Shown: positions 6,683 through 44,710, numbered from the stretch's first letter. The stretch is DNA of 44,844 nt from Acidimicrobiales bacterium (GCA_046153015.1 JBJXGF010000097.1:1-44844), one strand, 5' to 3'. The notes: generated by a model from the sequence alone, not told the origin. A program made the numbers and translations.

Positions 6683-6707
6683 GCATCCCCGCGCCCGACC
6701 GCCGCCC

Positions 6708-9045: not shown

Positions 9046-9118
9046 GGCCGGCCTCTGGCGGGCGCCCGGGCGCCCGCCTAAGCTGCGCGCTCCACGAGCG
9101 CCGATGATCGGGAGGACG

Positions 9119-17338: not shown

Positions 17339-17749
17339 ATGACCAACATCGCTTCCACCCACACCATCACGGTCGCCCAGGCCGCCGAGACCCTTGCGGT
17401 CTCCGAGCGCACCGTCTGGCGCTACCTCAAGTCCGGCCGCCTGCCCGGTGAGACCGTCGGCGAGCCCGGCTCCCAGAGAACCCTGATCCCGCGCGACGCG
17501 GTCGATGCGCTGCGCGGCGGGCGCCCGGGCCCCGATGCCGACGCCCTGCGCGCCGAGCGCGACCGGCTCGTCGCCGAGCTCGCCGCCCTGCGCGCCGAGC
17601 GCGACGCGCTGAGCGACCGCGTCAGCGTGCTGCAGCGCTCGCTGTCACACCCGCTGCGGCCCGGTATCGCCGAGCGCGTGCTCAGCCGCGCCCTCGCCAT
17701 CGCCGCCGCGGCCCGCGCGCGGGGACCGCGCGCCTACTCGCTCCGCTAG
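17339..17749 (+). CDS. Excisionase/MerR-like HTH protein with coiled coil
   Basis: TVAQAAETLAVSERTVWRYLKSGRL, followed by a duplicated ALRAERD heptad. Confidence 0.75.
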   Translation: MTNIASTHTITVAQAAETLAVSERTVWRYLKSGRLPGETVGEPGSQRTLIPRDAVDALRGGRPGPDADALRAERDRLVAELAALRAERDALSDRVSVLQRSLSHPLRPGIAERVLSRALAIAAAARARGPRAYSLR

Positions 17750-19065
17750 CCCTTGCGCAGTGGCGGGCGGCCGTCGTCGCCCGCCAGCTCGGGGTGCCAG
17801 CGCTCGAAGTGCGCGTGGTGCTGGTCGGTGACCGCACCCGGCGGGTAGTACTGGGCGTAGAAGTCGGTGTCGACGTGCTGGGCCTGGCAGGTCAGGCGCT
17901 GGTACATCGGGTCGAGGTAGGCCGGGAAGCGGCCGTAGGTGTCGTGGACGTACTGGCAGTAGTCCTTGACGATCTGGACCGTCTCCTCGCTGGGCCGCTC
18001 GATCTGCGAGGTGACCTTGTCGGGCTCGAGGTAGGCCTTGGGCTTGTCGGGCTCGTACTGGGACCACTTGCGCTCGAGGAAGGCGTCGACCGCCGCGCCC
18101 ATGTCGTCGTGGTAGGGCGGGGTGAAGGCCTCGAATACCCCGTCGCGGCCGACCGGCACGCTCGGGCCGCGCTTGGCGTCGGCGAAGCGGAAGCCGAGCC
18201 CCGGCACGTCCATCCCGCCGAGGGCGAAGCGGGCGATGTAGCCGGTGTAGGTCCAGCCGCCCAGGCCCATCGCCTGCAGGGCCAGGTTGATGTTCTGGCA
18301 GATGAAGGCCTGCTCGACGACCTGCATCGACAGCACCCGCTGCTCGAGCTCGACGATGCCCATCTGGCGGCCGGAGTCGAGGCGCCCCGAGTCGATCCAG
18401 CGCTGCAGGCCGCAGGGCGCGTAGCCGGCCGTCTCGTCCACCAGCGTGAAGCGGTAGTCGGGCGAGAAGTAGATGAACAGCAGGTTGATGTACTCGAGCG
18501 TCATGTTCGAGACCGGCAGAAAGAGCGTCGTGCCCGGCTTGTTCGCGTTCCAGTGGTTGAAGACGAACAGGCCCGGCAGGCCGGTCGGCATCTGCGCCCG
18601 GGTCGGCTCGAGCTGCTTCTTGGCGCCGCGCACCAGCTCCAGGATGAAGTCGACCTGCTGGTCGCGGGTCTTGTTCTGGAGCGTCGAGATCTCGCCGTCC
18701 TCGGGCATGAGGTTCCACATGTCGAGGAAGTAGAGCCCGTCGTCGTTGGTGAAGAAGAGCTCGGTGCCGTGGTTGGAGCACGAGCTCGGCCAGGTGCGGG
18801 CGGTCCATTGGACCATCGCGTCGGCGCCCATCGAGGGGTCGATGTCGCCCAGGTTGAGCCCGGTGAGGCCGGTGCCGGCCACCAGCAGCAGGGCCTCCTC
18901 GAGCTCGGTCAGCGGCACGGCCTCGTAGGGGCTCTCGTAGCCGAGGGTGCCGGGCATCTCCATCCCGAGCCCCATCCGGCGGCTCTTGCGGTCGAAGACC
19001 GACTGGAAGAAGGGATAGCCCAGGCCGTCGTCGAGGCCGGGGGGGTGGGGGAGGCCCGTGCTCAC
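17746..19065 (-). CDS. Uncharacterised protein, possibly nitroreductase-like fold
   Basis: Coding-like codon usage and GTGA coupling to the acyl-CoA dehydrogenase. RKSRR, RTWPSS and [15 protein letters not shown] resemble FMN-binding nitroreductase motifs. Confidence 0.6.
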
Positions 19066-30268: not shown

Positions 30269-31441
30269 CTAGCCCTCCAGGCGCTGATAGACGTGGATCG
30301 CGCCGACCGCGCCCGGGCCGCCGCGGCAGGCCGAGATGCCGATCTCGGCGCCGGGGCGCTGCATGTCGGGCGGCGCGGTGCCGCGCAGCTGCTCGATGAT
30401 GTCGACCGCCTGGGTGGCGCCCGTGGCCCCGAGCGGGTGCCCCTTGCAGAGAAGGCCGCCCGACAGGTTGACCGCGACCTTGCCGTCGATCCAGGTCGAG
30501 CCGTCGGCGGCGCCCTTCCAGCCCTCGCCCTTGGCGGCGAATCCGAGGCCCTCGATCCCGAGCGGCTCCTGGATCGCGAACGAGTTGTAGATCTCGGCGA
30601 CGTCGATGTCGCCGGCGCTGATGCCCGCCATCGCGTAGGCGCGCTCGGCCGGCGCGGCGAAGAGCGCGTGGGCGTCGTCGAGGGTGTCGGTGGCCGCGTA
30701 CCAGGTGCCGGTCGCCATCTGGGTGGCGGTGACATAGACCTGCGGCTTGTCGGGCTGGTCGCGCAGGATCTCCTCGCGGCACAGGATCAGCGACGACGAG
30801 GCGTCGGTCATCGGGCAGACCTCATAGAGCTTCAGCGGGTCGGCCACCTTGGCCGAGCGCATGACCTCCTCGACCGTGCACTCGAAGCGCAGGTGGGCGT
30901 AGGGGTTGCGCGCGCCGTAGTGGTGGTTCTTGACCGAGGTGTGGGCGAGGTCCTCCTCGGTGAGCCCGTAGGTCTGCATGTACTTGCGCGCCGTCAGGGC
31001 CACGCCCGAGGGGAAGGTGAGGCCCGAGAAGTACTCCTCCTTGGAGTCGGCCGCCTGGGCGATGATCGAGGTCCCCTCGACGGTCGCCAGGTCGTTCATC
31101 TTCTCGACCCCGACCACCATCACGGTGTCGTAGAGGCCCGACATGATCGCCGCGCAGCCGAGGTGGAGCGCCCACGCGCCGGTGCCGCAGGCCGCCTCGA
31201 CGCGCACCGCGCCGGCCGGTACGACGCCCAGGTGGTGGGCGACCATGAGGCCGGTCGAGTTCTCGTAGTTGAAGCCCACCGAGCCCACGTTGCCCACATA
31301 GAGCGACTGGATGTCGGCGGGCTCGACGCCCGCGTCGGCGAAGGCCAGACGACCCGACTCGACGGCCAGATCACGCAGCGACTTGCCGTGCTGGATCTTG
31401 TGAGGGGTCTTGCCGATCCCGAGAACGCCGACGCGCATCAC
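30269..31441 (-). CDS. SCP2/archaeal-type thiolase (PhlC/AcaB-like)
   Basis: VEAACGTG (catalytic Cys), GVEKM, VKNH, NPYAH, NLSGGLLCKGHPLGATG. Confidence 0.88.
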   Translation of the reverse strand: MMRVGVLGIGKTPHKIQHGKSLRDLAVESGRLAFADAGVEPADIQSLYVGNVGSVGFNYENSTGLMVAHHLGVVPAGAVRVEAACGTGAWALHLGCAAIMSGLYDTVMVVGVEKMNDLATVEGTSIIAQAADSKEEYFSGLTFPSGVALTARKYMQTYGLTEEDLAHTSVKNHHYGARNPYAHLRFECTVEEVMRSAKVADPLKLYEVCPMTDASSSLILCREEILRDQPDKPQVYVTATQMATGTWYAATDTLDDAHALFAAPAERAYAMAGISAGDIDVAEIYNSFAIQEPLGIEGLGFAAKGEGWKGAADGSTWIDGKVAVNLSGGLLCKGHPLGATGATQAVDIIEQLRGTAPPDMQRPGAEIGISACRGGPGAVGAIHVYQRLEG

Positions 31442-31447
31442 GCCTCC

Positions 31448-32434
31448 TCAGTGGGGTTCGGCCTGGCGGCCACGGGTCCAACGGTAGTACGTGGACAGGT
31501 CGATCGCCTCGCCGGCGATCTGGTCGGCCGCGCCCGACGACGACGGGGCCCCGATCACCTCGATCTCCTGGGCGATCGCCTCGCCCCCGCCGTAGCCCAG
31601 CGCGAGCAGGTGCTGGCCCTGCTCGGCGGCGTCGAGGCCCATCGCGAGGGCGATGCCGACCGAGGCCGCGCCCAGGTTGCCGATCTCCCCGACGAAGCTC
31701 GTGTGCTCGAGCTGCTCGGCGCCGACGCCCGCCTTGCCCAGCCCCCGCAGGGTCTGGGGATGGGGCTGGCTGGCGCAGACGGCCGCATAGGCGCCGGTCG
31801 GGCGCTCGGTCAGCCGCTCCAGCTCGCCGAGGGCCGCGCGGGTGGTCTCCCCGTAGGCGTCGAAGAGCACTTCGAGCCGGTAGCGGGCCTCGGGCTCGGT
31901 CCCGAGACGCCAGACGTCGTAGACCTCACGACCCGAGCGCGCGAGGGCGCCGAGCCGGGCGACCCCGCCGGAGGCGCCGACCAGGAACGCCGCCGCCCCG
32001 CCGGCCGAGAGGGTGTCGCAGACGCGCTCCTCGTAGCTCACGAGGTGGTCCGCGGCCACGACCAGCGCGGGCGCGCCGCCATCGCCTGCGAGCGCCGTGG
32101 CGATCTGGAGCCCGTCGAGGAGCGCTCCGGGGTGGCCGCCAACGTCGAGAGGCGTCGCGTCGGCGAGGCCGAGCGCGCGCGCCAGGGTCGCCGACAGCTT
32201 GCGCAGCCCGAACGGCGGCGACTGGCTGACGGCGATCACGACGCCCGGCGCCTCCGCCCCCGCGAGGGCGGCGGTCGCGGCCTCGTAGGCCATCGTCAGG
32301 GTGTCCTCGTCGAGGGCCGGGGTGCACAGGGCCTTGGAGCGCGGGCGGCCCGGGCGCCCGAAGAACTTCTGGATCTCCCCGAGAGGGGCCCGGTAGCGGG
32401 GCAGGTACGCCCCGTACCGGATGATCTCCCCCAT
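31448..32434 (-). CDS. HMG-CoA synthase-like protein lacking the catalytic Cys (PhlA/AcaA-like)
   Basis: YGAYLPRYR, DEDTLTMAYEAA, GGAAAFLVG, DVWR, IGNLGAAS, LGYGGG. Confidence 0.78.
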   Translation of the reverse strand: MGEIIRYGAYLPRYRAPLGEIQKFFGRPGRPRSKALCTPALDEDTLTMAYEAATAALAGAEAPGVVIAVSQSPPFGLRKLSATLARALGLADATPLDVGGHPGALLDGLQIATALAGDGGAPALVVAADHLVSYEERVCDTLSAGGAAAFLVGASGGVARLGALARSGREVYDVWRLGTEPEARYRLEVLFDAYGETTRAALGELERLTERPTGAYAAVCASQPHPQTLRGLGKAGVGAEQLEHTSFVGEIGNLGAASVGIALAMGLDAAEQGQHLLALGYGGGEAIAQEIEVIGAPSSSGAADQIAGEAIDLSTYYRWTRGRQAEPH

Positions 32435-32437
32435 CTG

Positions 32438-34096
32438 TTAGCGCTTGATCGTGATGCCGGCGGCCTCACGATCGAACGTGTCGGGGGTGACGCCCTCGTC
32501 GCGCAGCTTCACCTTCTGGACCCGCTCGGTCGGCGTCTTCGGCAGCTCGGCGACGAACCGGATGTAGCGCGGGACCATGAAGTACGGCATCCGCTCGGCC
32601 ATCCAGTGGGTGTACTCCACGGGGTCCGGCGCGTCGCCCTCGGCGATGCAGACGATCATGATCTCGTCCTCCGACGAGGCGCCCTCGCCGGCCTTGACGC
32701 CGATCGCCGCGACCTCCTTGACGTTCGGGTGGTCCGACGCCTGGCGCTCGACCTCCATCGAGGAGACGTTCTCGCCCCGGCGGCGGATGTAGTCCTTCAC
32801 CCGGTCCATGAAGTAGAAGTAGCCCTCCTCGTCCATGCGGCCGAGGTCGCCGGTGTGGAGCTTCAGGTTCCTGAAGTCGTCGGCGGTCTTCTCCGGCATG
32901 CCGTAGTAGGCGCGCATGACGATGTTCGGGATCTTCATGTCGACCACGATCTCGCCCGGGGTGTCGGGCGGAAGCGGCCGGTCGGTGCCCGGCTCGACGA
33001 TCGTGACCTCGTAGCCCGGGTTGGCCTTGCCCATCGAGCCCGGGACGCCCGGCTTGGTCGGGTCCATGTAGGTCGCCATGCCGGTCTCGGTGAGGCCATA
33101 GCCCTCGATGAACTTGACCCCGAAGCGCTCCTGGAACTCGTTGTAGATGTCCTTGGGCGCCGGTGCCGCGAAGCAGGTGTGCACCTTGTGGGCGCGGTCG
33201 AGCTCCGAGGGCGGGATGTTCCAGATGAAGTAGCTGACCGCGCCGATCGAGTTGAAGACGGTCGCCTCGGCGTCCTTCACCTGCTGCCAGAAGCGGCTCG
33301 AGGAGAAGCGCTCCACGTAGGCCACCCGGCCGCCGGCGACCAGCGCCGGATAGCCCGAGAGCACCTGGGCGTTGGAGTGGAAGAGCGGCAGACAGCTGAA
33401 GAAGGTGTCCTCCGACAGCGACTCGACCGACTTGCCGGCGGTGGCCGAGACCACCTCGAGCAGGCCGCGCGCCGAGAAGTAGTCGGCGGCGTTCTGCTTG
33501 ATGACGCCCTTGGAGCGGCCGGTGGTGCCCGAGGTGAACATGATCCGGGCGTCGTCGGTCCACGAGTAGGCGATCCCGTCCGGCTCACCGTCGGGGGCGT
33601 CCATGAGGGCCTCGAGCGGCTCCCACGGCAGCGTCGGGTCCGCGCCCTCCTGCTTGCCGGTCTTCATCACGATCACGTGCTCGAGCAGCGGCAGCTCGGT
33701 CTTGATGAGGTCGAGCCGCTCCAGGTAGAGGTCGGAGATGACCAGCTTCTTGGCCTCGACGAGGTTGATCGTCCAGGACAGGAAGTCGCCCTTGTAGGCG
33801 GTGTTGATCGAGCTCATCACCGCGCCGGCCTTGAGGATCCCGAACCAGACCGGGATGAACTCCTCGCAGTTGGGGAGCATGACGCTCACCGACTCGCCCG
33901 GCTGGACGCCACGTGCGATCAGGGCGTTCGCGACCCGGTTGGCGCGGGCGTTGACCTCGCCGTAGCTCACCCACGGCTGCTCGGCGAACTTCAGGTATTC
34001 CCGGTCGGGTGTCTCGGTCGCCCGCCGCTTGAGCACCTCGGCGAGAACCCACTTGGTCGGGTCCTCATGCGCGTACCAGTCGCTCCACTCGGCCAT
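32438..34096 (-). CDS. Acyl-CoA ligase (CaiC-like ANL adenylating enzyme)
   Basis: MFTSGTTGRSKG, EGYGLTE, HTGDLG, DRVKDYIRRRGENVSS, LPKTPTERVQK. Confidence 0.92.
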   Translation of the reverse strand: MAEWSDWYAHEDPTKWVLAEVLKRRATETPDREYLKFAEQPWVSYGEVNARANRVANALIARGVQPGESVSVMLPNCEEFIPVWFGILKAGAVMSSINTAYKGDFLSWTINLVEAKKLVISDLYLERLDLIKTELPLLEHVIVMKTGKQEGADPTLPWEPLEALMDAPDGEPDGIAYSWTDDARIMFTSGTTGRSKGVIKQNAADYFSARGLLEVVSATAGKSVESLSEDTFFSCLPLFHSNAQVLSGYPALVAGGRVAYVERFSSSRFWQQVKDAEATVFNSIGAVSYFIWNIPPSELDRAHKVHTCFAAPAPKDIYNEFQERFGVKFIEGYGLTETGMATYMDPTKPGVPGSMGKANPGYEVTIVEPGTDRPLPPDTPGEIVVDMKIPNIVMRAYYGMPEKTADDFRNLKLHTGDLGRMDEEGYFYFMDRVKDYIRRRGENVSSMEVERQASDHPNVKEVAAIGVKAGEGASSEDEIMIVCIAEGDAPDPVEYTHWMAERMPYFMVPRYIRFVAELPKTPTERVQKVKLRDEGVTPDTFDREAAGITIKR

Positions 34097-34151
34097 CTCT
34101 ACGTCTTCCCCCTTGGGTGCTGTCGTCGCTGGTCGGTCGCCCCGCCGTTCC

Positions 34152-34592
34152 CTAGACGGCGACGAACTTCGGCAGCGTTATCTCGTCGGTGACGTCGTGG
34201 AAGACCACGCGCACCTTCATCCCGATGGACACGTCTTCCGGGTCGATGGACGGGTAGTCGGGCTCGTCCTTGACCAGGTTGGACATCACGCGCACGCCCT
34301 CGTCCAGATCGACCAGGGCCACGACGTGGGGCGGGTCGCCCTTGTACGCCTTGCTCGGGCCGATGAAGTGGACCGAGTAGGTGTAGACCGTGCCGGTCCC
34401 CGGCGACTCGACCCACTGGACGGGCTCGAGGGTGCCGGGCACGAGGGCCCGGGGGTACCAGAAGGGCTCGCCCTTGGCGTTGGTCGGCAGGAGCAGCTTG
34501 TGCTCGCGCGTCCCGGCCCAGTAGTGGTCGCCCTCCGGGCGCATGTCGGGCAGAGGCTTGGTGTAGGGCGGAGTGGTGGACTGCTCGGACAT
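34152..34592 (-). CDS. DUF35 OB-fold protein lacking zinc-ribbon cysteines
   Basis: YWAG.REHKLL, GTGTVYTYSV, VALVDLDEGVRVMSN, IGMKVRVVF, LPKF. No Cys in the protein. Confidence 0.82.
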   Translation of the reverse strand: MSEQSTTPPYTKPLPDMRPEGDHYWAGTREHKLLLPTNAKGEPFWYPRALVPGTLEPVQWVESPGTGTVYTYSVHFIGPSKAYKGDPPHVVALVDLDEGVRVMSNLVKDEPDYPSIDPEDVSIGMKVRVVFHDVTDEITLPKFVAV

Positions 34593-34610
34593 CTCTCGTC
34601 TCCCTGTGCC

Positions 34611-35840
34611 CTAGGCCGCCGAGGGCGGTTCGCTCGACAGGACCAGCGCGCTCGTGGCGGCCAGGATCCCACCGGATCCGTTGGTGATGGCGAGCTTGGC
34701 GTCGGGGACCTGGTGGTTGCCCCCGCCCCGCCCGGTGTCGTCGGCCTCGCCGCGCAGCTGCAGGGTCGCCTCGACGATGTGGTGCATGGCTCCCAGGTGC
34801 GCCTGGCGGATCAGCCCGCCGTGGGTGTTCATCGGGAGCTTGCCGCCCAGCTTGGCGTGGCCCTCGAGCACCCAGTCCCCCGCCTCGCCCGGGCCGCAGA
34901 CGCCGAAGCCCTCGAGGGCGATCAGCGGCGTGAAGCTGAACGAGTCGTAGATCTCCGCCACGTCGAGGTCCCCGACGGTGATGCCGGCGACCTCCATCGC
35001 GCGCCGTCCGGCCCGGCCGAGGCCCTGGCGGACGCCGTCGACCGAGGTGGCCGAGGAGATGTACTGGTGCGAATAGCCCTCGCCGATGCCGGTGATGTAG
35101 ACCGGCTTGGGACGCATCGACTTGGCGCGGTCGGCGGTCGTCACGAGGAAGGCCGCCGCGCCGTCGGACACGAGCGAGCAGTCCATGGCGTGGAAAGGGG
35201 TGGCGATCCAGCGGTCGTTCATGACGTCCTCGACGGTGACCACGTCGCGCAGCATCGCGTTCCACTTCAGGGCGGCGTGCTCGGACTGGGTCGCGACGAC
35301 CGCGGCGAGCGCCTCCTGGGGGACGTCGTGCTCGTACATGTAGCGCTGGGCCAGCAGGCCGTAGCCGCCGATCGTGGTCAGGCCGTAGGGCGCCTCGTAG
35401 GCGCCGTGGCTCATCTCGCGGGCCATGGCGATCATCCCCGAGGAGCTGATGCCCGAGCGGGTGTTGTCTCCGCGCACGCAGAGCACCACCTCGGCCAGGC
35501 CGGCGTCGATCGCGAGCGCCGCCTGCACGGCCATCAGGGGCGCGGTGGCCCCGCCGACGGCGACCGAGGCGAAGTAGCCCGGCTCCATGCCGAGGTAGTC
35601 CGCGAAGGTCGTCGCGTGCATCAGCGTCGACTCGACGAAGGAGAACGCGGTGACCATCCCGTCGACCTCCGCGAGCGTGATGCCCGCGTCATCGAGGGTG
35701 ATCTTGGACACCTCGGCGAGGAGCTGGAACGACCCGCGTCCCTCCAGCTTTCCCTGCTCGGTCTCCCCCACCCCGGCGATGACGATGCCCTTGCCGAGCA
35801 TTCGGCGCGCCTCGCGCAGGTTGGGCGTGGCCTCGCTCAT
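34611..35840 (-). CDS. Thiolase-superfamily protein, Ltp2/SCP-x-like, without the nucleophile Cys
   Basis: IAGVGET, GGAT at the usual Cys site, DCSLVSDGAAA, AEIYDSF, PMNTHGG, IVEATLQLRG. Confidence 0.85.
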   Translation of the reverse strand: MSEATPNLREARRMLGKGIVIAGVGETEQGKLEGRGSFQLLAEVSKITLDDAGITLAEVDGMVTAFSFVESTLMHATTFADYLGMEPGYFASVAVGGATAPLMAVQAALAIDAGLAEVVLCVRGDNTRSGISSSGMIAMAREMSHGAYEAPYGLTTIGGYGLLAQRYMYEHDVPQEALAAVVATQSEHAALKWNAMLRDVVTVEDVMNDRWIATPFHAMDCSLVSDGAAAFLVTTADRAKSMRPKPVYITGIGEGYSHQYISSATSVDGVRQGLGRAGRRAMEVAGITVGDLDVAEIYDSFSFTPLIALEGFGVCGPGEAGDWVLEGHAKLGGKLPMNTHGGLIRQAHLGAMHHIVEATLQLRGEADDTGRGGGNHQVPDAKLAITNGSGGILAATSALVLSSEPPSAA

Positions 35841-36018
35841 CCATCCCTCCTCATGGTCGTCTCACGGGACCGATCGGGGCCGTCGGCGGCCGACGGCCGC
35901 CAGGCGACCAGAGGCAACGCAGGGCCGAGGCCAGGCCGGGTGGCCCGCACGGGCCCGAACGCTACCAGCGCCGCGAGCTGAGCGTCAAGGAGGTCCCACT
36001 CCACCTTTTAACCTGCAA

Positions 36019-36089: not shown

Positions 36090-36127
36090 GCGCCCCGCTT
36101 CCGATGTGAGACGCGAAGGAGATCGCG

Positions 36128-36430
36128 CTGTCTGCCTCTGATCCCAACTACGACGCCGCGACCGACACCTATCGGCAGATCTACCGCGGCCACGACAACG
36201 CCTCGGCGGTCACCAACAACGAGGGGCTGACGGTCTACTTCGACCCGGACACCAACGACGTGCTCGGCTTCTCGATCGTCAACTTCGGCGCCTACTACGA
36301 GTCCCACAAGACCGACGATGGCGAGTTCGAGGTCAACCTGCCGGCCAAGGTGCCGGCGAACCTCGAGGAGGAGATGGACTTCGACGCCGAGGCCATCCGC
36401 TCCGGCGTGCGCATCGCCGAGTTCTACTAG
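36128..36430 (+). CDS. Small acidic 100-aa protein, DUF2283-like, CTG start, absent from the ORF track
   Basis: AAGGAG-6 nt-CTG, with an in-frame TGA at 36107. Translation (M)SASDPNYDAATDTYRQIY...GLTVYFDPDTNDVLGFSIVNF...DGEFEVNLP is clearly similar to 38242-38589. Confidence 0.8.
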   Translation: MSASDPNYDAATDTYRQIYRGHDNASAVTNNEGLTVYFDPDTNDVLGFSIVNFGAYYESHKTDDGEFEVNLPAKVPANLEEEMDFDAEAIRSGVRIAEFY

Positions 36431-38145
36431 GCGGAGGACTCCCCGCCCGCGGGGCCGACCATGATGCCCCCGGGGCCCTTGCCCGAGGGGACCATCGGGA
36501 AGACCTTGGCCAGCGGGCTCACGTGGACGTCCACCAGCGCCGGCCCGTCGGCCGCAAAGGCCTCGGCGATCGCGTCGTCGAGGTCCTCGGGGGCGTGGAC
36601 GGTCGACGCGTGGATGCCGTACGCCTGGGCGATGCCGGCGAAGCTCGGCTGGAAGGCCGCGTAGCTCGAGCCGGCGTAGCGCCCCTCCCAGAAGAGCTCC
36701 TGCCACTGGCGGACCATGCCCAGGTAGCCGTTGTTCAGGATCACGACCTTGACCGGCAGGTTGTACATCTGGGCCGTCGAGAGCTCCTGGAGGGTCATCT
36801 CGAACGAGCCGTCGCCCGAGATCACGACCACCAGCTCGTCCGGGCAGGCCACCTGGGCCCCGAGCGCGGCGGGCAGGCCGAAGCCCATCGTCCCGAGGCC
36901 GCCGGAGGTGATCCAGCGCCGCGGGCGGTCGAAGATGTAGTGCTGGGCGGCCCACATCTGGTGCTGGCCGACGTCGGTGCAGACGATCGCGTCGCCGCGG
37001 GTGATGCGATAGACCGACTGGACGACCTGCTGGGGCTGGATGACGCCCTCGGCCTCATCGACCCGGTAGGGGTGCTGGCGCTTCCAGGAGGCGATCTGGT
37101 CGACCCATGCCGCGCGCCGGGCGGCGTCGTGGCCCTCGGGCAGCGCCTGGTAGGCGTCGGCCAGGGCCGCCAGGGCCGGGCCGGCCTGGCCGGCGATGCC
37201 GATGTGGGCGGCCCGGTTCTTCGAGATCTCGGCCGGGTCGATGTCGATGTGGATGATCTTGGCCCCCGGGGCCCATTCGCTCATGACGGTCGACAGGACC
37301 CGCTCATCGAAGCGCACGCCGACGGCCAGGATCGCGTCGGAGGCCTGGAAGGCATAGGTGGCCGCCGCGATGCCGTGCATCCCGGGCATCCCGACGAAGA
37401 GCGGGTGGGTGCCGGGGAAGCCGCCGAGGCCCATCAGGGTCGTGTTGACCGGGATGCCGGTGATCTCCGACAGGCGCGTCAGCTCGGCCGAGGCCTCGCC
37501 GGAGATGATCCCCCCGCCGGCGTAGATGACCGGCCGCTCGGCGGCGGCGAGGGCGCGGGCGGCGGCCTCGATCACGCGCGGGTGTCCGGCGCCCGAGGGC
37601 GGCCGGTAGCCGTCCATCGGGGGCTCGGCGTTCTCGTAGTCCTCGACATCGCGCGCCCACTGGTCGACACAGACGTCCACCAGCACCGGGCCGGGCCGGC
37701 CGGTCTGGGCGATGTGCAGGGCCTCGGCCATCGCGAGCGGCAGGTCGTCGGCGTCCTTGATCAGGTACGAGTGCTTCACGATCGGCAGGGTGATGCCGAC
37801 GATGTCGGCCTCCTGGAAGGCGTCGGTGCCGACCCGTGTCGAGCCGACCTGGCCGGTGATCGCGACCAGCGGGACCGAGTCCATGTAGGCGTCGGCGATC
37901 GGGGTGACCAGGTTGGTCGCTCCGGGACCCGAGGTCGCCGTGCAGACCCCGGCCCGCCCGGTGACCTTCGCGTAGCCTTCGGCCATGTGCCCGGCACCCT
38001 GCTCGTGGCGCACCAGGAAGGTGCGGATGTCCGGATCGTCATGGAGGGCGTCGAACAGGGGGATCACCGGGCCGCCCGGCAGGCCGAAGATCGCGTCGAC
38101 CCCCGCGCGCTTGAGGCTGGCGAGAGTCGCGTCAACCGCGCGCAT
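36427..38145 (-). CDS. ilvB: Acetolactate synthase large-subunit-like ThDP enzyme
   Basis: FGLPGG, RHEQGAGHMAEGYA, TSGPGATN, TDVGQHQMWAAQ, SGGLGTMGFGLPAA, GDGS...NN, GMVRQWQ. Confidence 0.9.
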   Translation of the reverse strand: MRAVDATLASLKRAGVDAIFGLPGGPVIPLFDALHDDPDIRTFLVRHEQGAGHMAEGYAKVTGRAGVCTATSGPGATNLVTPIADAYMDSVPLVAITGQVGSTRVGTDAFQEADIVGITLPIVKHSYLIKDADDLPLAMAEALHIAQTGRPGPVLVDVCVDQWARDVEDYENAEPPMDGYRPPSGAGHPRVIEAAARALAAAERPVIYAGGGIISGEASAELTRLSEITGIPVNTTLMGLGGFPGTHPLFVGMPGMHGIAAATYAFQASDAILAVGVRFDERVLSTVMSEWAPGAKIIHIDIDPAEISKNRAAHIGIAGQAGPALAALADAYQALPEGHDAARRAAWVDQIASWKRQHPYRVDEAEGVIQPQQVVQSVYRITRGDAIVCTDVGQHQMWAAQHYIFDRPRRWITSGGLGTMGFGLPAALGAQVACPDELVVVISGDGSFEMTLQELSTAQMYNLPVKVVILNNGYLGMVRQWQELFWEGRYAGSSYAAFQPSFAGIAQAYGIHASTVHAPEDLDDAIAEAFAADGPALVDVHVSPLAKVFPMVPSGKGPGGIMVGPAGGESSA

Positions 38146-38241
38146 GAGAAGTGTCCTTCCGCCCAGAGGTCCGAATCATCAACGGGCGAGTGTAATGGAC
38201 CTGGCCGGGGTAATCCCACCGCGAAGGAGGGCCCCCACCCG

Positions 38242-38589
38242 ATGAGCTCGACCCCACCACCACAGGACGACCCGGCGCGCCCCTCGTTCGCCGAGGAGAA
38301 CGCGATGCGGATCGCCTCCGAGTCGCTCAGCCACTACGACCAGGCCTCGGACACCTACCACTGCTCCTACGGGCCGCCGGTCCCGGCGGTCACGGTCCAC
38401 GACCCCGAGCGCGGGGTCCTCGTGCGGGTCGACCCGCGCACCCAGCAGGTCGTCGGCTTCTCGATCCCCCAGTTCAAGGCCTGGCACGCCGCCAACGCCG
38501 AGCCCGACGGCGGGTTCGAGATCGACCTGCCCTCCACCTGGCCGCTCGGCGCCGGCGAGGCCGCGGGCGGGGACGACGACGAGGCCTGA
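38242..38589 (+). CDS. Small acidic protein, DUF2283-like, paralog of 36128-36430
   Basis: [23 protein letters not shown]...[21 protein letters not shown]...DGGFEIDLP. Confidence 0.75.
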
Positions 38590-38660
38590 GCGGTCGTCGG
38601 ATCGGGGTGGTTCGGTACACTGACCGAATCGCTCACGGACAGTCGCGACAAGGAGCCGCA

Positions 38661-39473
38661 ATGGCGGTTGAGAGCCAGCGCGTCGAGGATTTCCGCCTCA
38701 CCAAGGAGCCCTACTACCTGCCGCTCGGCAACGAGGTGGAGCTCTTCGAGTCGGCCTACCACGCACGCCTTCCGGTGATGCTCAAGGGCCCGACCGGGTG
38801 CGGCAAGACGCGGTTCGTCGAGCACATGAGCTGGCGCCTCGAGCGCACCCTCGTGACGGTCGCCTGCCACGAGGACCTGACGGCCTCGGACCTCGTGGGC
38901 AAGTACACGCTGCGCGGCGACGAGACGATCTGGCAGGACGGCCCGCTCACCACCGCCGTCAAGGCCGGGGGCATCGCCTACCTGGACGAGGTGGTCGAGG
39001 CGCGCAAGGACACCACGGTGGTCATCCACCCGCTCACCGACGACCGGCGCATCCTGCCGCTCGAGAAGAAGGGCGAGATCGTCAAGGCGCCCGATGAGTT
39101 CCAGCTGGTGATCTCCTACAACCCGGGCTACCAGTCGGTGCTGAAGGACCTCAAGCACTCGACCAAGCAGCGCTTCGTGGCGATCGAGTTCGACTACCCG
39201 CCGCCGGACCTCGAGGAGACGATCCTCAAGGCCGAGTCGGGCATCGACGACGACACCGCCGCCAAGCTGGTCAAGATCGCGGAGAAGGTGCGCAACCTGC
39301 GCACGCACGGCCTCGAGGAGGGCGTCTCGACCCGGCTGCTGGTCTACGCCGGCCAGCTCATCCAGGGCGGGGTGGAGCCGATCACCGCCTGCGAGGCGAC
39401 GATCTGCAAGCCGATCACCGACGACCTGGAGATGCAGCGCTCGATCGTCGAGATCATCGCGACCCAGTTCTAG
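38661..39473 (+). CDS. cbbQ: CbbQ/NirQ/NorQ-family MoxR-type AAA+ ATPase
   Basis: [84 protein letters not shown]. Confidence 0.92.
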
Positions 39474-39492
39474 CGGCCGGGCCGGGCGCGCC

Positions 39493-40581
39493 ATGACCTT
39501 CGGCCCCGCCGTCGGCAACGTGGGCATGTACGTGGCCCGCGAGATGCTGGTCTCGGTCCCCGAGGACCAGCGCCAGGCCTACCTGCGCATGGTCGAGGAG
39601 ATCTCCGACCTCAAGTACCAGCTCGGGGTCGAGGTGGCACGCCAGCTACCGCGCCTCCTGGCCGAGGCGGACCCCGAGCGGGTCGCCCGCTACCTGCGCC
39701 AGGTCAAGGAGGTCGCGGCGACCGGGTGGAAGAGCGGGGTAGAGGTCGCCAAGCAGCTCCCCGACCTCTACGACGCGCCCGACGAGACCCTCGCCGGCGC
39801 CTATGTCGACATCGTCTCCCAGGCGACCGCGGGCCCCCCCGAGGACACCGAGACCACCCAGCTGGCCACCGAGCTCGACGACCTCGAGCGCGAGCTGCGC
39901 GAGATGGAGCCCAAGGTCAAGCGCGCCCAGGAGCTGCGCACCCAGCTCGCCGCGCGCGACCGGCGCGACGAGAAGCGCCGCAAGCACGCCGTCGAGCTCG
40001 CGGCGGCCCTGCCGCCGATCCTCGCCCGCCTGCGCCCGCGCTACCGGCCCCCCTACCTCGACCAGGTGCGCCAGGTCGCCGCCGCCGACCCCGAGGCCTC
40101 GCTCGAGGCCGCCGACACGCTGCTCGACCTCCTGAACGGCGAGCGCGTCTCGCCCGAGGGCGCCGCCGAGTGGGTCGACCGCGGCCTCGAGGTCCTCGAG
40201 CGCAACAAGGAGGTCGGGCGCGGCTACTTCCGCCTGGGCTCCAAGTACTCGCTCCAGGTGCTCGAGGAGCTCAAGGAGGGCCTGGCGCTGAAGTCGGTCG
40301 CGCGCGTCCTGAAGCTCTATGCCACCGCCCTGTCCGGGCACGAGGTCGCGATCCGGGCCACCAACGAGCTGCAGGCGGTCGACGTCTACGGCGTCGACCA
40401 CATCATGCTGCCGCCCGAGATGCACTTCCTCGAGGACGACGCCGGCAACTTCACCGCCTACAAGGTCGCCACCGCGCACGGGGCCGGGCGGATCGAGTTC
40501 GGCACCTACCAGTTCGCGCTGGCCGACATCCCCGAGACCATCGAGCGCCTGCGCGCCCGCTACCCCCAGGAGATCCGCTGA
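39493..40581 (+). CDS. Helical-repeat protein ending in a CbbO/NorD-like N-terminal segment
   Basis: About 38-aa repeats (Y(L/V)..V......GVEVA(R/K)QLP). The C-terminus L..VARVLKLYATAL...IMLP...YKVATAHGA resembles CbbO/NorD N-regions. Confidence 0.65.
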   Translation: MTFGPAVGNVGMYVAREMLVSVPEDQRQAYLRMVEEISDLKYQLGVEVARQLPRLLAEADPERVARYLRQVKEVAATGWKSGVEVAKQLPDLYDAPDETLAGAYVDIVSQATAGPPEDTETTQLATELDDLERELREMEPKVKRAQELRTQLAARDRRDEKRRKHAVELAAALPPILARLRPRYRPPYLDQVRQVAAADPEASLEAADTLLDLLNGERVSPEGAAEWVDRGLEVLERNKEVGRGYFRLGSKYSLQVLEELKEGLALKSVARVLKLYATALSGHEVAIRATNELQAVDVYGVDHIMLPPEMHFLEDDAGNFTAYKVATAHGAGRIEFGTYQFALADIPETIERLRARYPQEIR

Positions 40582-42368
40582 GCACCCTGCGCCCCCTCGA
40601 GACCGACCTCTCGCGCTTCTATGCGATCTTCCCGCAGCCGGCGCTCGCGCGGGACCTGTTCAACATCGTCGAGGGGCACCGGGTGGACTCGGCGATCCGG
40701 CGGGCCTACCCGGGCATCCGCCGCGACATGGCCCTCATCCAGAGCGCCAGCGCCGAGCGGCGGCCGGTGATCGCCAGCCTCTCGGACGCCCAGGCGGCGG
40801 TCGAGTCGCTCCTGCAGCACACCCTGGGCCTGCAGCCGGACCTCTCCGACCTCGCGCCGGCCACCCAGGCCCTGATCGGGCGCGCCGTCATCATGCTCGA
40901 CGAGATCGTGCAGATCGACGCGACGGTGGGCGACGCGGCCGCGCTCACGGGCGAGCTCTACCAGCTCATCGACGAGGGCCTGGCCGACCCGGGCAGCCGC
41001 GCGATGCCCCAGGCTGACGACCAGGAGACCGGCGACCCTCCCCCCGAGGGAGCCGGCGATCCGCCGCCGGCGGGATCGGGCGTCGAGGACTACGAGCAGC
41101 TCGAGCTGCCCCCCTTCATGACCCCGGTCATGGAGGAGCTCGTGCGCCCGCAGTCGGACGCCCCGGTCAAGCGCGAGGCCGAGGGCGCCGAGCCCCAGCC
41201 CGACGGCACCGGCCAGCGCCAGCCCGAGGAGCGCGAGGGCGAGGGCGAGGGCGACAAGGCCATGAGCACGACCGAGACCCAGGCCGGCCAGGGCGCGCCG
41301 GACGAGGTCGCCCAGCAGACCTCCTCCTCGGGCGACGAGGACGCCCCGCCGGGAACGGCCGAGGGGCGCTCCGACGACGCCGAGGGCGGCGGCTCCGACT
41401 CGCCCGAGCAGAGCGGTCTCGGGGATGTCCCCCAGGTGGACCCCGGCGCCGAGGAGGACGAGGACCTGGGCGAGCAGGTCTTCCACTACGACGAGTGGGA
41501 CCACAAGATCGAGGACTACCGGCCGGCCTGGTGCACCCTGACCGAGCACCGCCAGACCCGCACCCAGGAGGGCTTCGTCGCCGCGACCTTCCACGAGTTC
41601 GGCGGGATCGTCACCCAGATCCGGCGCAACTTCCAGCTGATGCGCCCGGAGGCCCTGCGCAAGATGCGCTACCAACTCGAGGGCGACGACCTCGACACCG
41701 ACGGCCTGGTCGAGTACGTGGTCGACCGGCGCGCGCGCATCTCCCCCACCCCGCGGGTCTACATCAAGCGCGACAAGCGCGATCGCGATGTCACGACGGC
41801 CTTCGTGGTGGACATGTCCAGCTCGACCGACCGCAAGATCGACGGCCGCAAGCGGATCATCGACATCGAGAAGGAGGCCCTCCTTCTGATGTGCGAGGCC
41901 CTCGAGGCGATCCGCGACGAGTACGCCATCTACGGCTTCTCGGGATCGGGGCGCGAGGACTGCCAATTCTACGTCGTCAAGGAGCTGGGCGAGCGCTACG
42001 ACGACCGCGTCAAGGGGCGCATCGGCGGGATCTACGCGCGTCAGAAGACGCGGATGGGCCCCGCCCTGCGCCACGCGACCCGGCGGCTGGCCGCCGCCGA
42101 CTCCAACGTGAAGCTGATGATCCTGCTGACCGACGGCAAGCCCTACGACTCGGACACCTACCAGGACAACACCTACGCGCAGGAGGACACCAAGATGGCC
42201 CTGCGCGAGGCGCGCCGGGAGAAGATCCACCTGTTCTGCGTGACGGTCGACCGCGAGGGCGCCGACTACCTGCCGCACATGTACTCGGACGCCAACTTCG
42301 TCGTGGTGGACGACGTGCGCACGCTGCCGCAGAAACTCCCCCAGCTCTACCGCCGCCTCACGACCTGA
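40578..42368 (+). CDS. CbbO/NorD-like VWA protein (probable CTG start)
   Basis: LFNIVEGHRVD, YDEWD..I.DYRPAW, EGDDLD, MIDAS VDMSSST, TRMGPALRHA, LLTDGKP, LPQLYRRLT. AGGAG precedes the CTG. Confidence 0.85.
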   Translation: MSTLRPLETDLSRFYAIFPQPALARDLFNIVEGHRVDSAIRRAYPGIRRDMALIQSASAERRPVIASLSDAQAAVESLLQHTLGLQPDLSDLAPATQALIGRAVIMLDEIVQIDATVGDAAALTGELYQLIDEGLADPGSRAMPQADDQETGDPPPEGAGDPPPAGSGVEDYEQLELPPFMTPVMEELVRPQSDAPVKREAEGAEPQPDGTGQRQPEEREGEGEGDKAMSTTETQAGQGAPDEVAQQTSSSGDEDAPPGTAEGRSDDAEGGGSDSPEQSGLGDVPQVDPGAEEDEDLGEQVFHYDEWDHKIEDYRPAWCTLTEHRQTRTQEGFVAATFHEFGGIVTQIRRNFQLMRPEALRKMRYQLEGDDLDTDGLVEYVVDRRARISPTPRVYIKRDKRDRDVTTAFVVDMSSSTDRKIDGRKRIIDIEKEALLLMCEALEAIRDEYAIYGFSGSGREDCQFYVVKELGERYDDRVKGRIGGIYARQKTRMGPALRHATRRLAAADSNVKLMILLTDGKPYDSDTYQDNTYAQEDTKMALREARREKIHLFCVTVDREGADYLPHMYSDANFVVVDDVRTLPQKLPQLYRRLTT

Positions 42369-42374
42369 CCGCGA

Positions 42375-42670
42375 CGGGGGTAGCCCGCTCGCCCCACCCG
42401 GGGTAAACGACTCGCGGCCGCCCTCCCGCCCGCGAGGCCTGACCCCGGGTAATCCGCTCGCGCGCCGGGGGAAATGGCTCGCAACCGGGGTAAACGGCTC
42501 GCGCCCAAGGGACACGAACCCGCCGTTCTCCACAGGCCGGCCGCCGCGGCGAGATCGCTACCGGGGTAACCAGCTCGCGCGCCCCCGGGGGATCCGGCTC
42601 GCGACGGGGGTATCCCACTCGCCGGGGACCGGGGTAGGCGACTCGCGCCCAACCGGGGTAACCGACTCGC
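42375..42670 (+). repeat. Array of ten iteron-like direct repeats, consensus GGGGTA-N5-CTCGC
   Basis: Copies start at 42377, 42400, 42446, 42467, 42487, 42563, 42587, 42607, 42631 and 42655, mostly 20-24 bp apart. Confidence 0.85.
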
Positions 42671-42702
42671 ACCCGGGACGTCATTCTCCCTGCACAGGCG
42701 GC

Positions 42703-42755
42703 GTTTTTTCCGACCCCTAGAATTAGGGTTGGTAGTTATAGGAAGAACAGTAGGG
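42703..42755. other. AT-rich patch, candidate DNA-unwinding element of the origin
   Basis: TTTTTTCCGACCCCTAGAATTAGGGTTGGTAGTTATAGGAAGAACAGTAG in otherwise very GC-rich DNA, directly after the repeats. Confidence 0.6.
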
Positions 42756-42795
42756 GCCGCGGCCGGCCGCGCCGCATACGCGGCCCGGCCGCGGC

Positions 42796-42813
42796 GCGAG
42801 CGATCTACCCCGG
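42796..42813 (-). promoter_or_regulatory. Inverted copy of the iteron just upstream of rep (possible autoregulatory site)
   Basis: Minus strand reads CCGGGGTA-GATCG-CTCGC. Confidence 0.6.
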
Positions 42814-42871
42814 TTATCTGCCCGCACCCGGCCCCGGCCATCCTCGCCAGCCGTCAGACTTCCCGCCGACG

Positions 42872-43846
42872 ATGACGCGTCCCGCCGCCGACCTCTCGCC
42901 TCTACCCCGCCCCGGCGCGCGCCCGCGGTCGGGTTCGGGCCCGGCCGACGACGTCCAGGTGATCGGCGCCGAGGCTCAGCTCGCGCTGTGCGAGCCCGAC
43001 CACCTGCGTCGCCTCGAGCAGCCGCTCAAGTACGGCTTCGCCGACCGCTCCAGCGCCCGCAAGGGCCTCGAGGTGGCGGCGGGCGTCGCGATCGCCGACC
43101 GGCTCGGCTCGATCCGCCAGACCGCCGGCCCGCCGATCGGCCGCCACGGCTACATGGCCATCGTCTGGCTCGGGTCGCGGTGGCTCCAGCTCGAGCAGCC
43201 GGCGGCGTCCGCGGTCCCCTTCACCCAGTACCGGCTCCTGCACGACTTCGGCTGGGAGGAGTCGGGCAAGAACGCGCGGCAGGCCCTCAAGAGGACGCTC
43301 CTGAACCTGCAGGAGGCCCGCTGGGAGGGCGAGGTCAACGACTCCCTCACCGGCAAGAAGACCCACGAGGACCACTTCGGGATCATCGACCGGGTGCTGT
43401 GGCCGGTCGTCCATGACGGCCGTCTCGAGCGCCTCGGCTACATCTTCCTGGGCAGTTGGTTCCTCGAGCAGCTGCGCCACGAGGCGGGCGTCTACATCGA
43501 CTGGGACGTCCTGCGCGACCTCCCCCCCATCGCCCGAAAGCTCTACGGGCTGCTCGAGAACGACCGATTCGAGCCGGGCGACGAGGGCGAGGAATGGCAG
43601 GCCTACTGGCTGGGGCCGGCCTTCTTCGCGAGCGTGGGGTCCACCTGCAGCCGCGAGCGCGACAATGTCGCAGCCCTCGGCCGGGCCTGCGAGGCGGTCG
43701 CGGGCCATCCGGGCACCGGGTACCGCTTCCGGCGCGAGCGCGTGGCCACCGACGAGGGCTGGGGACAGCAGCTGCTTGTGTGGCGCCCCGCCGGCAGCAC
43801 CGGCCGCAGGGTGACGCGCGGCATCACGCGCGCCGCCCAGGCCTGA
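42872..43846 (+). CDS. Putative plasmid-type replication initiator (RepA/TrfA-like winged helix)
   Basis: FTQYRLLHDFGW..SGK....LKRTLLNL, IFLGSWFLEQL and YIDWDVLRDLPPIARKLYGLL resemble initiator motifs. Lies between the iterons and parA. Confidence 0.65.
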   Translation: MTRPAADLSPLPRPGARPRSGSGPADDVQVIGAEAQLALCEPDHLRRLEQPLKYGFADRSSARKGLEVAAGVAIADRLGSIRQTAGPPIGRHGYMAIVWLGSRWLQLEQPAASAVPFTQYRLLHDFGWEESGKNARQALKRTLLNLQEARWEGEVNDSLTGKKTHEDHFGIIDRVLWPVVHDGRLERLGYIFLGSWFLEQLRHEAGVYIDWDVLRDLPPIARKLYGLLENDRFEPGDEGEEWQAYWLGPAFFASVGSTCSRERDNVAALGRACEAVAGHPGTGYRFRRERVATDEGWGQQLLVWRPAGSTGRRVTRGITRAAQA

Positions 43847-43898
43847 CGAGGCGCGATCGTGGCTGGGCACGGACGAGCCCCCTTCCGAGTGCTGCGCC

Positions 43899-43979
43899 CA
43901 TGCATGCATGCAGGCGCGCCACCAGGCACGCGTGGCAGCAGCAGGACATGAGCGCTGTCCGGCGAACATGCGAGCATGC
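43899..43979. repeat. CATG/GCA-rich short repeats upstream of parA (candidate centromere or operator)
   Basis: CATGCATGCATGCA at 43899-43912, then further CATG copies (GGACATG, GAACATG, GAGCATG). Confidence 0.4.
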
Positions 43980-44710
43980 CGACGGTCATGCCGACACGCA
44001 TCATCACCGTCGCCGCCGCCACGGGCGGCCTCGGCAAGACCACCCTGGCCTACGAGCTCGCCGCTGCGCTGGGTGGTGTCCTGGTGGACCTGGACTGGGA
44101 CGCCGGCGGGGCCACCCGCATGTGGGGCTTCGATCCCACCCGAGCCGCCCGCGCGCCACTGCTCGACGCACTCGAGAGGGGGCCTGAGGGCCGCCCGCCT
44201 CGCGTGAAGCACCGGGCCAACCAGCCCTCGCTGGTGCCCGCGCACCCGGACCTGGCGGCCAGTCGCATCGACGCCGATCTGGTCGGGGACTGCCTGTCGG
44301 CATGGGCGGGCGCCTGGCCGGAGCCCTACGTGGTGGTCGATACCCACCCGGGCGCCAACGCCCTCACCGACGGCGCGATGCAGGTGGCCGACCTGGTGGT
44401 GGTGCCGGTCGTCCTCGGAGCCCGCGAGATGGACGCCCTCGAGGCGATCGTGGCCGACTATGCGGGATATCGCCTGCTCTTGGCGCCGACGATGGTGCCG
44501 CCGGTGCCCCCGCGCCGGTTCGTGGAGCGCCTGGCCGCCCTGGCGGACGGACGGATCACCGTGGCCCCCCCGATCTCCGAGCACCGCTGGATGCGCCGGC
44601 GCCTTCGGCGCGCGGCGCTCGTGACCCAACCGAACCCCGGCGCGCGGGTGCGCGTCGCCGCCGGCGAGCTACGCGCGGTGGCCGAATCCGTGGAGGTGGC
44701 ATGTGGCTGA
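43976..44710 (+). CDS. parA: ParA family partition ATPase (short, type Ib-like)
   Basis: IITVA..TGGLGKTTLA, LVDLD, YVVVDTHPG, ADLVVVPV. Confidence 0.85.
   Translation: MPTVMPTRIITVAAATGGLGKTTLAYELAAALGGVLVDLDWDAGGATRMWGFDPTRAARAPLLDALERGPEGRPPRVKHRANQPSLVPAHPDLAASRIDADLVGDCLSAWAGAWPEPYVVVDTHPGANALTDGAMQVADLVVVPVVLGAREMDALEAIVADYAGYRLLLAPTMVPPVPPRRFVERLAALADGRITVAPPISEHRWMRRRLRRAALVTQPNPGARVRVAAGELRAVAESVEVACG

Follow-up and report, generated by a model that had tools for sequence, protein, structure and literature searches.

A predicted orphan CbbQ-type chaperone operon with a split CbbO-like adaptor beside an acetolactate synthase gene

We analysed a 44,844-base contig (JBJXGF010000097.1:1-44844, hereafter the window) of the metagenome-assembled genome (MAG) GCA_046153015.1, labelled Acidimicrobiales bacterium. 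It carries an operon of four co-oriented genes for a small acidic protein (small1), a CbbQ-type MoxR AAA+ ATPase and two proteins that together resemble a CbbO adaptor (parts 1 and 2; Table 1). To our knowledge, CbbQ-type machines, which pair a MoxR ATPase with a VWA-domain protein, are understood for two clients only, Rubisco and the NO reductase (NOR) cNOR. The four-gene system described here is real and conserved, and both its orphan status and the split of its adaptor are well supported. The operon probably specifies a remodelling chaperone of CbbQ-CbbO type, a MoxR/VWA machine driven by ATP. We infer the architecture of the complex, its remodelling activity, the identity of its client and the role of small1.

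Open reading frame (ORF) calling confirmed the coordinates of the four plus-strand genes at 38242-42368, which a model had proposed from the window alone (the sequence-only reading). The gaps between them are 17-71, 19 and -4 bases, in order. When species-representative genomes were searched with part 1, the operon was located at 31 loci (part 1 identity 49-94%); its plasmid form belongs to marine and soil Thermoleophilia. Since the four-gene arrangement recurs in these 31 loci from other genomes and in the closed plasmid of Miltoncostaea oceani SCSIO 61214, it is not due to chance, and the gene set is conserved.

The second gene encodes a protein with AAA_5 (PF07728, 2.5e-34) and CbbQ_C (PF08406, 9.8e-32) domains, both above cut-offs, an intact Walker A motif (GPTGCGKT at residue 44) and a Walker B motif that was read off the sequence as YLDEV. 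It scored 386 bits against the solved CbbQ 5c3c (E 6e-115) and 326 bits against NorQ (9qh4), while its AAA module scored 191 bits against midasin. The start is either ATG 38661, as in the M. oceani annotation, or GTG 38607, and the protein is 98% identical to that of the M. oceani plasmid. These domains and similarities bear out the proposed CbbQ-type system and assign the ATPase, as judged from its sequence, to the CbbQ/NorQ/GvpN subfamily of MoxR AAA+ ATPases.

A maximum-likelihood tree of 71 CbbQ sequences, in which the known classes were represented by 3 NOR-linked, 2 Rubisco-linked and 4 amidase-linked rows, placed the window CbbQ and 30 relatives in one clade (100/100). This clade was joined to 21 Nitrospirota CbbQs that pair with a long adaptor (94/87). 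The window CbbQ fell outside both the NOR clade (3 rows, 100/99) and the clade of Rubisco- and amidase-linked sequences (2+4 rows, 100/99), these known classes being thinly sampled and several of their branches long. A position inside the canonical activase clades, which would have spoken for a known client, was thus not found for the sampled Rubisco and NOR sequences.

Part 1 (362 aa) has no Pfam or NCBIfam family. Its AlphaFold2 (AF2) model, with a mean predicted local distance difference test score (pLDDT) of 83.7, is a run of helical hairpins spanning H7 to H260 and ends in a small alpha/beta part. Structure searches with it matched only helical repeats of a generic kind (best E 0.039 with Foldseek, best Z 8.1 with VIA-align wide). 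Part 2 (~596 aa) has a Pfam VWA match (2.8e-09) with DMSSS, the motif of a MIDAS (an adhesion site that depends on metal ions), at residue 412; its linker, residues 126-290 (165 residues), holds 41 D+E vs 8 K+R. Residues 261-594 of part 2 align to residues 311-643 of NorD (9qhd_G), and since residue 643 is close to the last of 646, the alignment runs into the NorD C-terminal tail. The model, the Pfam match and the composition confirmed the helical-repeat protein and the MIDAS VWA protein with a long acidic linker that had been recognised in the window.

Homologues of part 1 were sought among 1.84 billion representatives, with 395 matches at E<=0.001. Long homologues (>=550 aa) made up 76 of the best 150 part 1 matches, and in 75 of these 76, part 1 is followed 5-20 residues on by part 2 in one chain, typically of ~1000 aa. 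On a profile built from 25 such fused long adaptors, part 1 residues 141-359 corresponded to positions 251-474 and part 2 residues 9-596 to positions 483-1049. The N-termini of Rubisco-linked CbbO proteins mapped to the part 1 positions (Cereibacter residues 55-263, E 4.6e-24; Nitrobacter residues 6-280, E 7.5e-23), and the NorD N-terminal domain matched the profile weakly (E 3.9e-5). Because CbbO N-termini share these profile positions, part 1 is a CbbO-type N-terminal domain preceded by extra repeats. Parts 1 and 2 together are thus assigned as a CbbO-like adaptor that is encoded as two polypeptides, and not as the single polypeptide that defines CbbO/NorD-type adaptors. The profile mapping, the fused homologues and the conserved stop uphold the claim of a split adaptor longer than canonical CbbO.

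The window shares the TGA stop of part 1 and the shift of frame with every interpretable relative and with the closed M. oceani genome. Genes 3 and 4 overlap by NTGA, which is ATGA, GTGA or TTGA in relatives and CTGA in the window, in three close relatives (L003-L005) and in M. oceani; in all of these with CTGA, part 2 therefore starts at CTG or further downstream, the candidate starts in the window being CTG 40578 and GTG 40683. The gene models held in their coordinates and domains, but gene 4 has no ATG, GTG or TTG at the conserved start. The M. oceani RefSeq VWA gene is annotated to start ~50 codons late (L119 37124-37274; window 40578-40683), which trims conserved residues. In the two most divergent relatives, stops lie in the part 1 region matched by tblastn (L032 9521-10595, L033 10001-11078) and may reflect decay or frameshifting. 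An artefact of frameshifting, or a pseudogene in decay, could account for these stops, for the CTG at the part 2 start and for the one 765-aa fusion among the best 120 homologues of part 2. However, independent assemblies and a closed genome from pure culture agree on the TGA stop of part 1 and the frame shift, both parts are conserved, and the best part 2 matches are otherwise stand-alone (119 of 120, 546-600 aa), which makes such an explanation very improbable. The adaptor is, on these comparisons, naturally split and conserved, and not an assembly error. A second split lineage (P0135) was not found in genome and metagenome contigs.

Neither Rubisco nor NOR had been recognised in the window, and no gene of either was found there with Pfam and NCBIfam. 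None of the five genomes with a chromosomal cluster had a RuBisCO_large match (0/5), and a COX1 family scan, made with no dedicated NorB model, found no NorB-like COX1 in these five genomes or in the MAG. The COX1 matches in the five genomes were one strong aa3-type gene in 4/5, else fragments. The genome search that had been proposed for Rubisco and norB thus gave no bona fide gene in the five genomes. A canonical Rubisco or NOR helper whose client lies elsewhere in the genome might be argued from the MAG itself, which has three COX1-family genes and, on contig C230, one RuBisCO_large Pfam match (77.5 bits). Yet the C230 protein scored 104 bits vs a cut-off of 438 with the NCBIfam Rubisco model and was below all curated cut-offs. 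Such matches occur in 11/14 relatives of the MAG's family, which are free of CbbQ save for one weak CbbQ_C match (1/14). The COX1 genes of the MAG are oxidase-like, and the absence of Rubisco from the chromosomal-cluster genomes and the place of CbbQ outside both clades leave a canonical helper largely refuted and highly unlikely. The C230 gene (L002 215-1639, minus strand), which encodes a Rubisco-like protein, adjoins a nucleoside-phosphorylase-like gene. The data support a system that accompanies neither Rubisco nor NOR.

The gene divergent from the operon encodes a thiamine diphosphate (ThDP) enzyme that had been taken as catabolic. It scored 740.2 bits vs a cut-off of 538.35 with TIGR00118, the model of the biosynthetic acetohydroxyacid synthase (AHAS) large subunit, and the catabolic assignment was given up. 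This ilvB-like gene adjoins the operon in 26/26 informative loci, down to 49% identity of part 1; five loci (L005, L006, L007, L016, L024) begin too near the operon and were not counted. Copies were counted in ten genomes, five with the chromosomal cluster and five with a plasmid-type contig, and in 10/10 the gene by the operon, its coordinates checked against the loci, was the only TIGR00118 match above cut-off. No ilvN is present in the window; it lies elsewhere in 4/5 genomes checked, ~1 Mb away in G188. As the sole above-cut-off match, with ilvN elsewhere, the gene encodes the only catalytic subunit of AHAS in the lineage and is separated from ilvN. The MAG with the window also has a canonical ilvB-ilvN pair on contig C113, which may come from another organism.

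In the rearranged locus L018, ilvB, small1, cbbQ, part 1 and part 2 stand together between cydABDC and an aquaporin gene. The AHAS catalytic subunit is the best named candidate for the client because of its adjacency in 26/26 loci, its joint move with the operon in L018, its sole copy in 10/10 genomes and the paralogous small proteins that flank its gene; we hold this identification tentatively, as a possibility short of even odds. The acyl-CoA enzyme complex encoded upstream (thiolase, DUF35 and HMG-CoA-synthase-like) may also be considered as client, since its cluster adjoins in 23/24 informative loci in both plasmid and chromosomal settings, and small2 is transcribed divergently from the thiolase operon. 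However, it is missing from L018, where machine and ilvB persist, and it lies farther from the operon than ilvB; a thiolase-type client is improbable.

Small1 (115 aa) has a pI of 4.27, with 19 D+E vs 6 K+R, as had been read for the first gene of the operon. It is kept upstream of CbbQ in relatives at 61-85% identity and has no Pfam or NCBIfam family (Pfam at E<=0.01). In its AF2 model (pLDDT 76.6), two helices enclose a five-strand beta meander, and the chain ends in a disordered acidic tail. No PDB structure matched the model, and the small1 profile against PDB sequences gave only a 29-residue stretch of a biofilm surface protein, which was not credited. For small1 and small2, DUF2283 (PF10049) was the third Atlas match (score 0.83, cluster 43% DUF2283) and is a lead only. 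Small2 is ~35% identical to small1 and is kept in relatives at 58-88% identity, so that the two paralogues flank the AHAS gene. Its conserved N-terminal half has no ATG, GTG or TTG (window 36110-36430), and its DNA is conserved in relatives from a shared CTG near 36131 onwards.

The MIDAS of midasin, a related AAA+ protein, pulls small domains. By this precedent, and given the similarity of the CbbQ AAA module to midasin, the small acidic proteins could themselves be MIDAS ligands or substrates, with the machine regulating whatever small1 and small2 bind. The constant place of small1 as first gene and its conserved acidic disordered tail are in keeping with this, but the small1 fold has no known relative and the Nitrospirota fused-adaptor systems have no small1 homologue, and we consider such a role quite unlikely. 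The conserved 137-aa protein that follows many Nitrospirota fused adaptors gave an hhalign probability of 0.1% against small1.

A wider scan, with a 7-row subset of fused adaptors as query, gave 552 relatives, from which 75 loci were kept; the subset biased the loci towards Nitrospirota, and all were Nitrospirota or Nitrospinota. CbbQ lies at most 10 kb from the fused adaptor in 32/75. The fused adaptor (~1000 aa; L037-L111) is followed by the 137-aa protein, which has no family, in 50/75 loci, and then by malate dehydrogenase in 44/75. Named long-adaptor members elsewhere belong to Chloroflexota, Dehalococcoidia and Myxococcota. The long, repeat-bearing adaptor is therefore not special to the window but marks a widespread clade. 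The neighbourhood analysis proposed earlier established ilvB linkage within the lineage but no shared enzyme neighbour in fused-adaptor loci.

These loci bear on the possibility that the same machine acts on a client encoded elsewhere, shared with the fused-long-adaptor Nitrospirota and Chloroflexota, and that ilvB adjacency is inherited synteny. In favour are the spread of the long adaptor (the 552 relatives of one scan and the 395 part 1 representatives) and its neighbourhoods, in which no enzyme is conserved, the 137-aa protein and malate dehydrogenase are the commonest, and only the machine genes of the window recur, none of its other genes being found again near the fused adaptor in the 75 loci. 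On the other side, the five-gene unit with ilvB stays intact in rearranged L018, and ilvB adjoins at every informative locus down to the most divergent part 1. We regard a client encoded elsewhere as somewhat unlikely, though worth serious attention.

CbbQ/VWA pairs beside other enzymes are already known. Pseudomonas aeruginosa AmiB is among the aliphatic-amidase-linked pairs. On four proteobacterial plasmids (L129, L131, L132, L133) an aliphatic amidase lies directly before or close to the CbbQ/VWA pair, with urt-type transporter genes in three of the four. The roles of the amidase-linked CbbQ/NorD-like pair 'remain unclear' in the wording of a 2026 paper (PMC13209695). Thus the absence of Rubisco and NOR from the present locus stood, but a CbbQ/VWA system next to an enzyme that is neither of them is not in itself new.

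The mechanism that we propose is drawn from the known machines. In NorQ-NorD (PMC13036017), a finger of the NorD VWA domain enters the NorQ pore, contact with the ring is made by the NorD C-terminus, the small AAA subdomain is bound by the N-terminal domain, and the linker cannot be dispensed with; another paper (PMC9976466) puts forward the variable N-terminal domain as the determinant of target specificity. On the pattern of NorQD and CbbQO, CbbQ would form a hexamer, whose pore would be plugged by the VWA domain of part 2 with its MIDAS presented to an acidic client residue, and the acidic linker of part 2 may transmit force. The CbbO-like N-terminal domain with the extra repeats of part 1 would dock on the ring and set client specificity, for which part 1 and the first portion of part 2 may be responsible. 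Coupled translation at the NTGA overlap would yield the two parts, which would then reassemble. If AHAS were the client, its catalytic subunit would be assembled or reactivated by the machine, with small1, and perhaps small2, as accessory or bridging factor. Rescue could follow, for example, oxidative or dead-end inactivation of the ThDP/FAD site. The full picture of an 'AHAS activase', in which a Rubisco-activase-type AAA+ motor, aided by a bipartite adaptor and a small acidic protein, would assemble or rescue the sole AHAS, is speculative and on balance rather unlikely. The multi-component remodelling chaperone with a new client envisaged in the sequence-only reading stood as regards its CbbQ type and the exclusion of Rubisco and NOR by genomes and tree, with AHAS as no more than a candidate client.

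Several observations weigh against this reading. The ilvB neighbour was found in 0/75 Nitrospirota long-adaptor loci and in 0/8 other CbbQ loci in the MAG's class. The ilvB linkage is confined to Miltoncostaeaceae-like Thermoleophilia, a single lineage in which the wider region is also syntenic, and the adjacency may simply be inherited. We know of no chaperone requirement of AHAS, and a literature search for a link of AHAS to CbbQ or MoxR gave nothing relevant. Structure searches with the part 1 model gave no specific match to NorD, and the CTG start of part 2 in the window and M. oceani makes its translation efficiency uncertain. A simple scan, which does not cover actinobacterial promoters, found no sigma-70-like promoter at 38146-38241. 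At >=90% likeness, RNA-library contigs of relatives (3 studies) span the junctions of small1 with cbbQ and of cbbQ with part 1, which hints weakly at co-transcription, but contigs from relatives in RNA libraries do not prove transcription. A literature search on the pathway gave nothing relevant, and a simple promoter and terminator scan of the locus gave no result. A complex prediction of AHAS with VWA residues 291-596 and small1 scored 0.00, which is evidence neither way.

The window is the whole of contig C70 of a MAG of 4.46 Mb (414 contigs, 82% complete). A tblastn search against plasmids showed the same gene order throughout in M. oceani SCSIO 61214 plasmid unnamed2, a circular replicon of 46,598 bp from a pure culture. 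In relatives, the genes of the window end (RepA, ParA) run on to those of its start (two ADC-like genes, TRAP transporter). Since the gene order wraps from end to start, C70 is essentially a complete plasmid (~45 kb). An RPA initiator, ParA, iteron-like repeats and a closed circular relative were all found. At 42456-42674, upstream of the gene for the RepA-type initiator, three arrays of ~20-24-nt tandem units share an ACCGGGG core; they are probable iterons of the plasmid origin. The plasmid carries F420 biosynthesis genes (cofC/D/E/G/H region, ~6700-12740), and because of these and of the only AHAS large-subunit gene it looks like an essential chromid, not an accessory element. Among relatives, the operon occurs with RepA and ParA on contigs of ~40-50 kb, and without them on large contigs (0.1-2.8 Mb), where complex I genes follow. 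The ADC-like pair, which had been listed as a neighbour, is adjacent only via the circular replicon and is missing from the chromosomal versions.

Public MAG contigs of the plasmid (L003, L004, L007, L027, L031) are labelled Acidimicrobiales, Alphaproteobacteria, Polyangiaceae and Bifidobacteriaceae. The mixed labels may reflect mis-binning of a high-GC plasmid, also in the MAG of the window. Because the MAG's family is mostly without CbbQ and plasmid contigs carry labels from several phyla, the binning of C70 is doubtful. In tetranucleotide and GC composition, C70 correlated with the MAG at 0.975, the 11th lowest of 83 contigs, a value that does not settle the binning.

Table 1. Features of the operon and its surroundings, in window coordinates
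Feature	Position	Strand	Basis
small1, 115-aa acidic protein, first gene of predicted chaperone operon	38242..38589	+	ORF call; pI 4.27
CbbQ-type MoxR AAA+ ATPase	38661..39473	+	AAA_5 + CbbQ_C
Adaptor part 1, helical repeats and domain homologous to CbbO N-terminal domain	39493..40581	+	Profile mapping
Adaptor part 2, helical region, acidic disordered linker, VWA with MIDAS	40578..42368	+	Pfam VWA
Divergent intergenic region, 96 bp, between ilvB-like gene and small1	38146..38241	.	Gene coordinates
AHAS (acetolactate synthase) large-subunit gene, divergent from operon, candidate client	36427..38145	-	TIGR00118
small2, small1 paralogue across AHAS gene	36113..36430	+	~35% identity to small1
Context: thiolase, HMG-CoA-synthase-like, AMP-ligase, DUF35 OB-fold and thiolase genes	30269..35861	-	Pfam, NCBIfam
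Context: iteron-like repeats, RepA-type initiator (42872-43846), ParA (43976-44710)	42456..44710	+	RPA, ParA families; repeat scan

Two other candidates in the window were rejected. PADLOC yielded only weak AAA noise for a defence system, and a second NorD-like gene at 21339, suggested by a shared HYDEWD word, is a GMC oxidoreductase gene. A 439-aa ORF (17749-19065, minus strand) with coding-like GC content at third positions and no Pfam or NCBIfam family lies between helix-turn-helix and acyl-CoA dehydrogenase genes; the M. oceani plasmid has no gene at the equivalent position.

Orphan long-adaptor CbbQ systems are themselves widespread. The locus belongs to a large unstudied clade of long-adaptor systems in Nitrospirota, Chloroflexota and Thermoleophilia, and makes the question of the client tractable: it lies on a small plasmid of the cultured and non-pathogenic M. 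oceani SCSIO 61214, its adaptor is naturally cut at a domain boundary into pieces that should be easy to express, and one concrete candidate client, the sole AHAS, is at hand. Were AHAS the client, the activase principle would hold for a central ThDP enzyme as well as for Rubisco, and a first client would be known for the widespread clade of long-adaptor CbbQs.

Among known systems, CbbQ-CbbO is the Rubisco activase (solved CbbQ 5c3c and 6l1q; PMC4660213). The window system resembles it in its CbbQ (386 and 349 bits to the solved CbbQs), in the order of ATPase gene and then adaptor gene, and in an adaptor with a CbbO-type N-terminal domain, a linker and a C-terminal MIDAS VWA. It differs in having no Rubisco, in a CbbQ outside the sampled Rubisco-linked clade, in an adaptor of two genes with extra N-terminal helical repeats (958 aa vs 743-786 aa) and in an operon that also encodes a small acidic protein. 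NorQ-NorD inserts FeB into cNOR (PMC13036017, PMC9976466; PDB 9qh4-9qhg). Here the likeness lies in the similarity of CbbQ to NorQ, in the alignment of VWA and C-terminal tail to NorD and in the adaptor plan of N-terminal domain, disordered linker and VWA; in contrast, the window system has no norCB, its N-terminal domain is weakly related and its CbbQ lies outside the NOR clade. The amidase-linked pairs are similar in that the enzyme next to CbbQ/VWA is not Rubisco and not NOR, but their CbbQs group with Rubisco-linked ones, their adaptors are single chains of 581-746 aa and the enzyme is another one. The closest relatives are the uncharacterised fused long-adaptor systems of Nitrospirota, Chloroflexota and Myxococcota, whose adaptor runs collinearly through part 1 and part 2 (~30-37% identity) and whose CbbQs, 62-70% identical, form the sister group of the window clade. 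Unlike the window operon, they have single-chain adaptors of ~1000 aa, no small1 homologue and no ilvB neighbour.

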